64,000 nt of DNA from NCBI GenBank assembly GCA_000092065.1, contig CP000589.1; one strand, written 5' to 3'. This document shows positions 28,986 through 31,820 of this stretch, piece by piece (position 1 is the stretch's first letter; the number at the start of each line of letters is the position of its first letter). The notes under the pieces were generated by a model, which was given only the letters and a program-made list of their open reading frames with translations, did not search any database and was not told the origin of the DNA. The translations under genes and the position numbers were made by a program. Source of the stretch: Ostreococcus lucimarinus. Lineage: Eukaryota.

Positions 28986-31820
28986 ATGCGCGCGAACCGC
29001 GACCGCGCGTTTCACGGCATACACTCCGACGCCACCGTCGCCGGAAGCGACGGCGCCGCGCCGCGTCGTCGCGACGAGCGCGAGCTCACCGAGCTCGACG
29101 TCTTCGGGACGCTCAAGGAAAAGCACCACAAAAACACCGTGAAAACGATGCGCGCGATGTACGCGGACGTCCGCGAGCGACGGCGAAGGGCGATGGAAGA
29201 TTTAACGCCGCTCCAACGCCGGGCGCGGGCGAGCGGAGGCGTGAATCCGTTCGATTGGTCGGATGGACACGTGGGACACTTTTACGAGTTCATGGTGGCG
29301 GAGAACGCGGCGAGCGAACGAGGAGCGAAGTCGCGCGCCATGGTGTTCGAGAGACAGGATGAGTCGGGACAAAACGTGGTGGAGGAATTATTCGATAGTT
29401 TTAGGGCGGACTACGCGGATCGGTGGCGGGCGGAGGTGGTGTGCGGGATCGACGCGAGCGCGGGGGCGTGCGAGCGGTATAGGGACGCCGCGGCGGAGGC
29501 GTGCGAAGCGTTGCTGGGAGACGACGACGCACGAGAGATGGGGGCGTGCGAGACGTATTTGCACACGTATGGGATCGTGCACGAGCATTGGCACGTGGAA
29601 GATTACGTGCAGGCCAGGAATACGTTGGGATACTCAAAGCCAAAGATGGAGGCGCCAAAGCGATATCCGGCGAATTTGTGGGGAGACTCGGTCTTGGCGC
29701 GCTCGAGAAACGGGGAATGTTCGGCCTGTAGTACTCAAGTGATCACTCTTCAAGGATATGTCGACGTGGATGTGGGGACGACCTATTCTTTAGGCGCCGA
29801 GCGAGAGGACAAGTGGGTGTTCGACGCCGAGCGATGGGCGCACGACGTACCAATGACAAAGTTCAAAATTGCGAAGACGTGTTGCACGAACGCGCAATTC
29901 GCGTGCTTTGTCGAAACAGGAGGTTATGCCGACAGAAGTCTTTGGAGTCACGAAGGGTGGCGATGGGTGGAAAAACGACGCGCCGCGGGTGAATTGTTGG
30001 CGCCTCTCGGTTGGAAAGTGTCGCCGTGCGTGAAATTCTTAAGCAACGGCGAAGAAGCACCCGCGTGTGAGAGTTGGCGATGTGCGTACTTTGATGAAGC
30101 GCCACGCGCACTACATCCGCAGCACCCTGTGTGCCACGTGTCGTGGTACGAAGCCGAGGCGTATTGTAACTGGATTGGCGCACGTTTACCGACTGAGGCG
30201 GAATGGGAAGCAGCCGCGAGAACGACGACGAGTTGGTCGACGGACAAACAAACCACAAAGCGTCGCACGTATCCGTGGGGTGAAGAATCTCCTTCAGAAG
30301 ACAAAGCAAATCTTGGTGGACACTTTGGAGGTACTATTGATGTCAGTGCTTTGGGTGCGGGCGATAGCGCGCACGGTTGCCGACAGATGTTGGGCAACGT
30401 TTGGGAATGGACGGCGTCGGCTTTCCTGCCTTTTCCCGGTTTTCAAATGGACTACCCGTATCGCGAAAACAGCTGTCCGTGGTTTGGGTATAGAAAAGTC
30501 GTCAAAGGCGGGTGTTGGGCGACGAGCGCGCCCATCGCGCGTGCGGCATATAGACACTCGTTTTGGCCGCACATGCACAACACGTTCAGTGGATTTCGCG
30601 CCGCTATCGGTGGCTCGCAAAAGCGCGCGCTTTGCATTCTTCCGCAAAAAATACAGAGCGGCGCAAAATGTGGCAACGTGGTCACGATGGAAAGAATTTC
30701 TTCGCATCTCGAGAAGAATCACATCATGAGCATCACGCGTTCGATTTTTGATCTGCCGCAGTCAAAGGAGGATTTGGCGAACATAATACACGCGATGAAC
30801 GTCGATTTGATCATCGTCTTGCACGCTTTCAAGTGCGGTGCCGTGATCGATACCGTACAGGCATATAAAGACATGCTCCCGCCTATCGTTCTAGTGCTCG
30901 GCGGCACCGACGTCAACGTGGATTCTCGAAAGTCTGCGCTCGCTGAGGAACAATTTCGCCGACGCGTTGACGTCGCGACAAAAGTTGTCTCGTTTTCCTT
31001 GTCCATGATAGAAGCCGCACCCAAAGGTGCGTTGAAATTTATCGAGTCGGACTCGACATCTAAAACCAAACTGATACCGCAAGGAGTCATGCTCCCGAGC
31101 ACGTTGAAGGCTTCAAAGCGCAAAAGGCTTGCAGATGAAACTGTGGAAACACCCGGCGAGCTTCAAGGCACCTCGCGGCCTGCGGACCTATCGATACCGA
31201 TCATGTTCCTACCTGCGGGATTACGCCCAGTCAAGGACGTGTGCTTCATAAACGACGCATTGACTGCGTATAACTCAAATGGAATCAAAGCACATCTGAC
31301 TGTGTGCGGCCCTTTCCTCGATTCGGCGTACGCGAAACGCGTGCGATGTCAGTTTGACGGTCGTTCCGATTGTACCTTGCTAGCAGGTGTCGATCGCGCG
31401 ACGCTTGTAAGGTTCATCGGCGAGGCGAAAGTTTTGTTGAACACCTCGGTATCGGAAGGTCAAAGCGGAACCATCGCTGAAGCGATGATGGTGGGGACTT
31501 TAGTCTTCGCGCGAGATATTCCAGGCAATCGTCAGCTCTTTGAGTTGTGCGAAGCGAGAGCGCTCGCAGCACTCGGTCCTGCGACGATAAAGGAGATGAA
31601 GGGCGATGGATGGGAGGTTCACCCGGTGGGAGTACTATTCTCGACTCCAGAGGGTTGCATGCGCGCTTTCGAAGCATTAGGTCTCGAAAGAGAGTCGACC
31701 GAAGACGTGGATGTATCGTTGATTAGACTCCGCGCGCGCGAAGGCGTCGCCGAACTGTCATTGAACGAAGCGAAGCGTTGGACGGAAATTTTAGACGAAA
31801 TCACCGCGCACGGTTCATGA
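28986..31820 (+). CDS. EgtB/OvoA-type iron-dependent sulfoxide synthase (DinB_2 + FGE-sulfatase) fused to a C-terminal GT4 glycosyltransferase domain
   Basis: N-domain: GHVGHFYEF and HEHWHVE (HX3HXE iron-ligand motif of EgtB/OvoA). FGE-sulfatase domain: [59 protein letters not shown]. C-terminal ~390 aa GT-B: [8 protein letters not shown]...IVLVLGGTD and [36 protein letters not shown]. Single uninterrupted 944-aa ORF. Confidence 0.8.
   Translation: [944 protein letters not shown]

Follow-up and report, generated by a model that had tools for sequence, protein, structure and literature searches.

The gene analyzed in this study lies at positions 28986..31820 (+) of a 64,000-nucleotide window from contig CP000589.1 of Ostreococcus lucimarinus (assembly GCA_000092065.1). 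In the list of open reading frames (ORFs) it runs from an ATG start to a TGA stop and encodes a 944-residue protein. In this protein a member of the nonheme-iron sulfoxide/selenoxide synthase superfamily (NHISS; the EgtB, OvoA, SenA and OvsA enzymes) is fused to a GT-B glycosyltransferase (GT). The best-supported reading is that a SenB-like selenosugar synthase and a SenA/OvsA-like selenoxide synthase have been fused, which would make this a new form of the sen/ovs pathway, present in a eukaryote and with a divergent active site. The protein is probably a bifunctional enzyme in which one polypeptide would catalyze two successive reactions of a selenoneine/ovoselenol-type pathway, and it suggests that abundant ocean algae make a selenium compound. 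This reading draws on homology, conserved residues, gene context and a recurrent fusion, from which the activities themselves are inferred.

The ORF is real and represents one gene. The initial annotation had described one continuous frame that holds a series of characteristic motifs, and all of them were located (GHVGHFYEF at residues 94-102 and HEHWHVE at residues 199-205, together with the FGE-type and GT motifs). A protein cluster search returned nine clusters of full-length orthologs with the same architecture in one frame, at 60-66% identity. A protein of exactly identical sequence, labeled "iron(II)-dependent oxidoreductase," occurs on 267 contigs in public collections. Because nine full-length orthologs share the fusion and the exact protein is found on so many contigs, the ORF is not a product of chance and the proposed fusion is genuine. 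The two largest 90%-identity clusters of the fusion protein, from ocean metagenomes, contain 171 and 187 member sequences. The linker had been estimated at about 50 residues within sequence of ~50 percent GC. It is actually about 6-10 residues long (residues ~541-546), as the FGE domain ends near residue 540 and strand beta-1 of the GT domain begins at residue 546. An alignment with read-through translations of seven sister loci placed the linker sequence GGSQK at residues 541-545 (30606..30620, +), which is where the sister genes have an in-frame TGA. The GC content declines gradually along the ORF from a point within the N-domain, without an abrupt change where the two domains meet. A chimera or horizontal gene transfer was considered from the drop in GC and was rejected on this ground.

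Pfam assigned the FGE-sulfatase domain (PF03781; FGE, formylglycine-generating enzyme) to residues 257-540 with 156 bits and E = 1.8e-45. Two GT4-type models matched residues ~745-853 slightly over their cutoffs (Glyco_trans_1_4, 29.2 bits, cutoff 27; Glycos_transf_1, 27.2 bits, cutoff 26.4), and no S-adenosylmethionine-dependent methyltransferase domain was detected by Pfam in the 944-residue protein. These results agree with the initial annotation, which had proposed a GT4-type GT-B domain joined to the iron enzyme in the absence of a methyltransferase. The DinB_2 match that it also foresaw fell under the cutoff (17.6 bits versus 24.8). The N-terminal half was accepted as a DinB and FGE enzyme despite this score because residues 61-544 align end to end with OvsA (PDB 8u41, E = 4e-57), the best solved structure for this half, which was followed by EgtB-I and SenA. 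The DinB-like four-helix domain (29163..29600, +) was delimited by alignment with OvsA and SenA, with the columns checked against published motifs, and the FGE-sulfatase (C-type-lectin-like) domain of the NHISS half (29754..30605, +) by Pfam and the composite-motif table described below. An N-terminal motif, RDRAFHGIH (residues 5-13; 28998..29024, +), is conserved as RDRxFHGxHA in both eukaryotic NHISS clades and sits well upstream of H95, the first iron-ligand histidine.

Our literature search found no account of eukaryotic SenA/SenB-type enzymes, of the function of this fusion or of a member containing selenocysteine (Sec), and in the literature searched the architecture, which the initial annotation did not recognize, had not been characterised. 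The sole mention is a 2015 survey (Ho 2015; PMC4659905), which listed the O. tauri ortholog among sulfatase-modifying factors and described its GT domain as "incomplete." It is barely credible that the protein is such a formylglycine-generating enzyme with an accessory GT remnant. The strong Pfam match to FGE-sulfatase and the published classification speak for it, but true FGE structures match residues ~254-540 only, with E-values of ~1e-14 to 1e-18. The protein has a DinB domain with a 3-His iron site and a catalytic Tyr, it aligns with OvsA and SenA end to end, and its GT domain is predicted to be complete and well folded (pLDDT 85.6).

Among the NCBIfam models, SenA (NF041186) scored highest for the N-terminal half with 292 bits, yet under its equivalog cut-off of 420, and was followed by EgtB (TIGR03440, 220 bits, cut-off 360) and OvoA (TIGR04344, 116 bits, cut-off 400). 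The NHISS superfamily has been classed by a 17-position composite active-site motif (Kayrouz et al., PMC11030361). The columns of this motif were mapped onto the 944-residue protein with an alignment that reproduced the published OvsA, SenA and EgtB-I motifs, which served as validation. The iron triad H95 (29268-29270), H199 and H203 (both at 29580-29594) and the catalytic Y492 (30459-30461) align with their counterparts in OvsA, SenA and EgtB-I, so the iron-ligand histidines proposed earlier are kept. The DinB-like domain also carries the selenosugar-side residues N87, S92/D93, Y143 and R146. Mutagenesis has shown that N63, E68 and R120 of SenA bind the selenosugar (PMC11237966); N63 and R120 are kept as N87 and R146, and E68 is replaced by S92 with D93 adjoining. 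The thiol-binding motifs of EgtB-I, EgtB-II, OvoA and EgtB-IV (SD..RR or R.Y..D) are absent from the 944-residue protein, and the residues for cysteine or gamma-Glu-Cys are missing. The N-terminal half is closest to the SenA/OvsA branch rather than to the EgtB or OvoA type. The initial annotation was correct in the superfamily, a DinB and FGE iron enzyme, and mistaken in assigning it to the EgtB/OvoA type.

The composite motif of the protein reads N-S-H / Y-R / H-W-H / Y-N / H-S-F-M. It differs from the SenA motif, xNEH--HRHxHYYN(F/Y)(F/Y)R, at positions 3, 7, 13, 14, 15 and 17, and does not match the OvsA motif, xNEH--HRHxHYMQAYR, beyond the shared core. The acceptor pocket lies in the FGE domain (H524-S525-F526...M530 at 30555-30575, with N495) and consists of N495/H524/S525/F526/M530, compared with Y366/N395/F396/F397/R401 in SenA and M401/Q430/A431/Y432/R436 in OvsA. 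The hercynine pair N395/F396 of SenA is thus H524/S525 here, Y366 is Asn and R401 is Met, and Q405 of OvsA is Trp. This pocket signature is invariant in the clade P0001-P0027 and fits none of the six described NHISS classes. Pocket position 15, the site of the cation-pi partner of hercynine in SenA, is aromatic in the EgtD-fused clade and is Ser in the clade of the fusion gene, which lacks EgtD. This fits the published rule that histidine-accepting NHISS enzymes carry a small residue at that position. OvsA and OvoA likewise have a small residue (Ala431 in OvsA) in place of the aromatic of hercynine users, and this resemblance points tentatively to non-methylated histidine as the acceptor. Because the aromatic residue which holds the trimethylammonium group of hercynine in SenA and EgtB is Ser525 here, with His524 and Asn495 as neighbors, hercynine is a less likely acceptor than histidine or some other derivative that is not a betaine. 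The product may thus differ from both selenoneine and ovoselenol. Of all the links in the argument, this is the weakest.

The C-terminal half (residues 546-944; 30621..31817, +) was identified as a SenB-like GT-B domain in several ways. First, the GT half as a single query against the PDB matched SenB alone, although weakly (E = 0.13), and a profile of 44 family members returned SenB as the top four distinct sequences (E = 6e-12 to 1e-9), followed by a TagF-like polymerase (1e-6) and MshA (8e-3). Secondly, hhalign matched the GT family to the N-terminal acceptor domains of SenB with 97% probability (E = 1e-10, 134 columns); the N-terminal domain of GT-B enzymes sets the acceptor. Third, Foldseek with an AlphaFold (AF2) model of the GT half (pLDDT 85.6, pTM 0.84) placed SenB at ranks 1-3, with the highest target-normalised TM-score of 0.79. 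The best NCBIfam match of the GT half was NF038229, the "GPMC system family 4 glycosyltransferase," at 146 bits. This is below the equivalog cut-off of 400, and neither an MBL hydrolase nor a TIGR04442 neighbor occurs in the window. The SenB model TIGR04348 scored 59.6 bits against an equivalog cut-off of 300 and covered the C-terminal part only. SenB sequences were searched with a 97-residue fragment and were recovered as fragments of 168 residues or less, which is enough for the N-domain and the RxxK motif and not for a GT phylogeny.

The residue evidence for SenB likeness is stronger than the fold evidence. The roles of SenB residues in selenophosphate binding, Se-P cleavage and UDP-sugar binding have been established by structure and mutagenesis (PMC10891094, PMC11237966), and 12 of 14 are kept in the GT half (N20, T23, H58, G84, T85, D86, Q131, R155, V157, K158, E231 and E239). 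For example, in the loop after strand beta-1, C562-G-N564-V-V-T567 (30669..30686, +), N564 and T567 correspond to N20 and T23, which bind selenophosphate and the sugar. The walls of the acceptor pocket, LHAFKCG and LGGTDVNVD (30819..30923, +), are family-invariant and align with SenB, with H613 at H58 and G640/T641/D642 at G84/T85/D86. Q699 corresponds to Q131. The family-invariant R747, V749 and K750 (31209..31241, +) occupy the places of R155, V157 and K158 and occur in LRPVKD here and in GHLRxxKDP in the SenB fragments; K158 is the lysine required for cleavage of the Se-P bond (PMC10891094, PMC11237966). In the UDP-sugar site (31440..31535, +), which includes ARDIPGNR, E824 and E832 align with E231 and E239, residues covered by the mutagenesis in PMC10891094, and the spacing from the lysine to the glutamate is 74 residues compared with 73 in SenB. 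The selenophosphate pocket and catalytic set of SenB is entirely conserved and family-invariant except for T83, which is Gly639. Q699, V749, E824 and E832 of the UDP-sugar set are kept, and EGGAHV reads EGQSGT, so that H235 is Gly. The GT half is most likely, from these residues, a SenB-type selenosugar synthase rather than a decorating glycosyltransferase.

The distribution of the GT family was also examined. A scan with family signature peptides, using one genome per prokaryotic species, gave 80 loci. In approximately 22 loci from Bacillaceae the GT immediately follows selB and precedes a PhnD/E/C-type transporter, whose PhnD-type binding protein is also a match to the "putative selenate" model TIGR04553; L020 has selA downstream as well. 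(These loci are L012, L020, L028, L031, L039, L043, L045-L047, L049, L052, L056, L057, L059, L063-L065, L068, L070, L072, L086 and L088, with the GT at ~7001-7800 in most.) The Bacillaceae GT looks like a conserved and apparently undescribed member of the sel operon, and it ties the GT family to selenium without involvement of an NHISS. In the 15 loci from Geobacteraceae the GT always adjoins a "GPMC system" MBL-fold (PhnP-like) hydrolase and a 614-residue TIGR04442 protein, and is a true NF038229 member with 445 bits (L009, L022, L036, L038, L040, L041, L050, L055, L058, L066, L069, L080, L084, L085 and L087). The NF038229 and Bacillaceae proteins have signature motifs in common with the GT half, including ARDIPGNR. 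Unlike the fusion they are stand-alone bacterial proteins, and no NHISS gene was found within 7 kb of any bacterial relative. In eukaryotic collections the two domains were found in other arrangements: GT followed by a SenA-like NHISS (P0029, P0602), EgtD followed by GT and NHISS (P0031, P0032, P0039), and a SenA-type NHISS with a YRNFF pocket followed by GT (P0215). The pairing of GT and NHISS recurs across fusions, which is a Rosetta-stone pattern. A distant continuous NHISS-GT fusion of 906 residues from a metagenome (P0599, 39% identity) has replacements at two of the three iron ligands (GSVAHFYE, HEHWNVE), and its iron domain therefore seems degenerate.

The identity of the GT bears on the product proposed in the initial annotation, in which the iron half would make a thiohistidine sulfoxide from cysteine and the GT half would glycosylate the thiol or imidazole product in place of the methylation by OvoA. 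The domain order is OvoA-like, with the tailoring domain at the C-terminus, and GT4 enzymes which are close by fold, BshA and MshA, serve low-molecular-weight thiol pathways. However, the cysteine- or gamma-Glu-Cys-binding residues of EgtB-I, EgtB-II and OvoA are missing, and OvoA is the lowest-scoring NHISS model. In addition, the N-terminal domain of the GT, which sets the acceptor, is specifically SenB-like, and its small polar pocket would suit an inorganic phosphate-type acceptor and not an amino acid. The GT family also occurs upstream of the NHISS domain or between EgtD and NHISS, and in bacteria it lies beside selB/selA with no NHISS nearby. A glycosylated thiohistidine or related thiol is unsupported by a SenB-type GT whose acceptor pocket appears to be built for selenophosphate, and this model is very unlikely.

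In the preferred reading, the fused selenosugar and selenoxide synthase, selenophosphate would be supplied by the selenophosphate synthetase and Sec machinery of the alga. By homology, the GT-B domain would convert selenophosphate and a UDP-sugar to a 1-seleno-sugar, with K750 used for hydrolysis of the Se-P bond. The NHISS domain would hold Fe(II) by H95, H199 and H203, use Y492 in catalysis and bind the selenosugar by N87, R146 and perhaps D93, and would attach selenium to a carbon of the imidazole ring in a histidine-type acceptor, in an O2-dependent reaction that yields a selenoxide. As in the published chemistry of SenA, the selenoxide would shed the sugar spontaneously, and reduction would give the free selenoimidazole. 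The sugar is therefore not read as a decoration of the product; it is most likely a carrier that would deliver selenium to the iron domain from one step upstream. The fusion would pass an air-sensitive selenosugar straight between the two active sites.

Selenium is also indicated by the genes of sister lineages. The nearest "stand-alone" NHISS homologs (P0010-P0022, 45-49% identity) all end in ...[G/S]-[R/K]-L. In all seven sister-lineage loci this Leu is followed by a single in-frame TGA between the halves and then by 356-561 open codons through a complete GT domain. The TGA codons are at 1897-1899 in L001, 4582-4584 in L002, 11756-11758 in L003, 5705-5707 in L005, 5624-5626 in L006, 3452-3454 in L007 and 4468-4470 in L008. 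In three loci the called GT start was measured to lie 16, 46 or 100 nt from the TGA, each 1 mod 3, and in the other four the called start coordinates likewise set the GT ORF in frame with the NHISS. No AUG precedes the essential GNxxT loop in six of the seven. In each of the five loci with a usable 3' untranslated region, a hairpin resembling a selenocysteine insertion sequence (SECIS) lies 62-115 nt past the GT stop (L001 3247-3292, L002 6143-6191, L003 13378-13428, L006 7005-7052 and L007 5203-5249). The hairpins consist of an [A/G]UGA-C start, a helix of 10-11 bp, an apical region rich in A that includes a mini-stem in some loci, and the complementary strand followed by [C/U]-GA. The quartet is GUGA with an apical mini-stem in three loci and AUGA in two, and at 5 of 11 helix positions the loci differ by compensatory double changes. 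A fixed SECIS descriptor gave nine matches in 266 kb, where 1.8 were expected from dinucleotide shuffles; four were at the expected sites, two lay behind a split thioredoxin-fold gene in L003 and L006, and another lay in the window behind the SelW/Rdx gene described below.

Two caveats apply to the Sec claim. The Rfam SECIS models gave no SECIS match on L001-L003 at E <= 10; these models were built mainly from animal sequences. The folding z-scores of the five candidate elements are weak (-0.5 to -2.2), and stability alone is no evidence for SECIS in GC-rich DNA. The sister orthologs combine an in-frame UGA with a SECIS-like element in the 3' untranslated region, the two hallmarks of eukaryotic selenoproteins. 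Very probably they are selenoproteins that carry Sec in the linker between the domains, and gene callers have probably split them in two. One Sec-type locus (L008) clusters with a Mantoniella antarctica transcript through the P0179 cluster, and the remaining loci are on GC-rich Mamiellophyceae-like contigs. The split thioredoxin-fold gene lies directly downstream of the fusion gene with the in-frame TGA and consists of an ORF of 54-55 residues, a 16-nt gap and an ORF of 160 residues, followed by the descriptor match (L003 13787-14452 and 14533-14581; L006 7229-7894 and 8023-8074). It resembles a further selenoprotein gene split in two, with synteny between two lineages.

These loci also bear on the alternative that the two halves are separate proteins, with the continuity of the ORF accidental or an artefact of the gene model and the GT translated alone, for example from the internal ATG at 30687 which the initial annotation had named. 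Gene callers do divide the relatives into two ORFs, and the same 90% cluster includes a Tara gene call of 415 residues that covers the GT only. However, the nine orthologs hold one stop-free frame. A start at the internal ATG (M568) would drop strand beta-1 and the loop with N564 and T567, which are essential parts of the active site. The split relatives are interrupted by one TGA only, with the frame held at each of the spacings given above, and six of the seven loci offer no AUG upstream of the GNxxT loop. There is also no GC step at the junction. Separate translation is highly improbable.

The O. lucimarinus fusion ORF itself has no internal TGA, and its 118-nt 3' spacer has no match to the SECIS descriptor; on the same criteria it is not a selenoprotein gene, in contrast to its sister orthologs. 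The Sec column holds Ser, Thr, Leu or Asp in the Ostreococcus clade, with no Cys and no SECIS, and Ostreococcus lost the linker Sec or never had it. The GT loop reads AK-C-GN (AK-C-GNxVT, with C562 at 30669-30671) in eight of nine Ostreococcus-clade members and AD-G-GN (AD-G-GNGVT) in all Sec forms, and the Cys at the C562 position may compensate for the missing Sec. A second cysteine, in RALC, was considered as the Sec equivalent and was rejected since it aligns inside strand beta-1, where relatives carry Leu or Val.

The alga uses Sec, because a SelW/Rdx-family gene with two in-frame TGA codons and a SECIS is present in the same window. This 89-residue ORF (MNPLVHITY-U-GG-U-GYLRF..., 23712-23981, -) has a UxxU redox motif and matches Pfam Rdx with E = 2e-13 when U is replaced by C. 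A GUGA-type SECIS-like element with an AAAA loop and a mini-stem (23597-23647, -) lies 65 nt past its stop and serves as a positive control for the GUGA type. According to a 2026 review, GUGA is an accepted though uncommon form of the SECIS quartet. A further reading, which we put forward tentatively and regard as somewhat doubtful, is that prasinophyte picoalgae (Ostreococcus, Mantoniella-like and related lineages) make an undescribed Se-histidine derivative, distinct from selenoneine and ovoselenol, by means of a fused enzyme with an acceptor pocket of its own. In most of these lineages the enzyme would itself be an unrecognised selenoprotein whose linker Sec joins in the chemistry. The Sec could, for example, resolve a selenoxide or selenenic acid intermediate, or relay selenium between the active sites. 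On this reading, abundant eukaryotic phytoplankton would be a main supplier of organoselenium antioxidants to the marine food web.

Several points weigh against the assignment as a fused selenosugar and selenoxide synthase. First, both halves score under their curated equivalog cut-offs (SenA, 292 versus 420; SenB, 59.6 versus 300), and the GT half scores higher on NF038229, an uncharacterised GPMC-system GT4, than on SenB (146 versus 59.6 bits). Secondly, SenA E68, a residue whose mutation impairs activity, aligns with Ser92 here, and SenB T83 and H235 both align with Gly. Third, BshA-type GT4 enzymes are nearly as close as SenB in the modeled fold, so that the fold by itself does not settle the assignment. 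The choice of acceptor and the regiochemistry are guesses based on four residues of the pocket. Lastly, the window has no genes for a selenophosphate synthetase or a histidine methyltransferase; clustering of pathway partners is not expected in a eukaryote.

Some of these points would also suit a sulfur version, in which the GT half makes a 1-thio-sugar from an activated sulfur donor, the iron half forms a C-S bond and the product is an ergothioneine- or ovothiol-like thiol reached by a sugar-carrier route. The superfamily is mostly sulfur-based, SenA turns over thioglucose in vitro, neither half reaches the SenA or SenB equivalog cut-off, and several selenosugar-side residues differ (S92, Y143). 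However, thioglucose is a very poor substrate of SenA, and because the sulfoxide formed from it does not eliminate to give the thiol, further enzymes would be required. SenC did not make thiophosphate from sulfide in vitro, and we know of no biological source of thiophosphate. The selenophosphate pocket of SenB and its Se-P-cleaving lysine are retained in the GT half, bacterial relatives of the GT are found inside sel operons, and the algae that carry the orthologs use selenium, the orthologs themselves being probable selenoproteins. The sulfur version is unlikely.

Among the closest described systems to the fused selenium enzyme is SenA with SenB from the bacterial sen cluster (Variovorax paradoxus; Kayrouz et al. 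2022), in which the same two enzyme types act in consecutive steps. SenB is a GT-B selenosugar synthase with the N20/T23/H58/T85/D86/R155/K158/E231/E239 set and is the best PDB match of the C-terminal half. SenA has the DinB and FGE fold, the 3-His site, the catalytic Tyr and the Asn/Arg selenosugar side and is the best NHISS match of the N-terminal half in NCBIfam. In O. lucimarinus the two are a single fused polypeptide of a eukaryote with no gene cluster, and no SenC or EgtD gene is near. OvsA, from the ovoselenol (ovs) pathway of marine gamma-proteobacteria (Kayrouz et al. 2024; PDB 8U41/8U42), is the best-scoring solved structure of the N-terminal half and uses a selenosugar from SenB and SenC. 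No OvsM-type methyltransferase was found here, and the protein is fused to a GT. Fusion of an NHISS to the enzyme of a neighboring step has precedents in fungal Egt1 (EgtD-EgtB) and in OvoA (NHISS-methyltransferase), and the algal relatives P0031, P0032 and P0039 add an EgtD domain as in Egt1. The partner here is a glycosyltransferase that would supply the chalcogen donor rather than a methyltransferase, and Egt1 and OvoA use cysteine.

If correct, this would be the first eukaryotic candidate for dedicated selenium small-molecule biosynthesis. The organisms that supply the selenoneine of marine animals are still unsettled. The biosynthesis of selenoneine (2022) and ovoselenol (2024) has been described only in bacteria, a 2026 review lists both only there, and the low-molecular-weight selenium compounds of marine phytoplankton are largely unidentified in the literature. 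The divergent acceptor pocket hints at a new compound and possibly new chemistry. The proposal is directly testable, as it concerns one clonable gene that is common in ocean metagenomes, from an alga that is cultivable and genetically tractable. The Sec-containing orthologs would add a selenoprotein family to the 42 catalogued in algae, among which an NHISS-Sec-GT family does not appear, and a selenoprotein which makes a selenometabolite would be an unusual case. The automated labels "iron(II)-dependent oxidoreductase" and "SUMF" miss the character of the fusion, and gene callers halve the Sec forms.

Proteins encoded next to the fusion gene are identical to entries of O. lucimarinus CCE9901 (XP_001419770.1 and others), which identifies the window as nuclear DNA of this picoalga. 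The genes around the fusion gene are housekeeping genes (PheRS, NAD synthase, CLPTM1, SMC, RPN7 and others), and no SelD, EgtD, histidine methyltransferase or other pathway partner gene was found in the window. A gene for an NAD-dependent sugar-nucleotide epimerase/dehydratase lies 19 kb from the fusion gene at 9072-10565 (+), with no evident functional link. Two further matches to the SECIS descriptor in the window, at 50351-50406 (-) and 28463-28516 (+), have no obvious selenoprotein ORF upstream and are probably chance matches.

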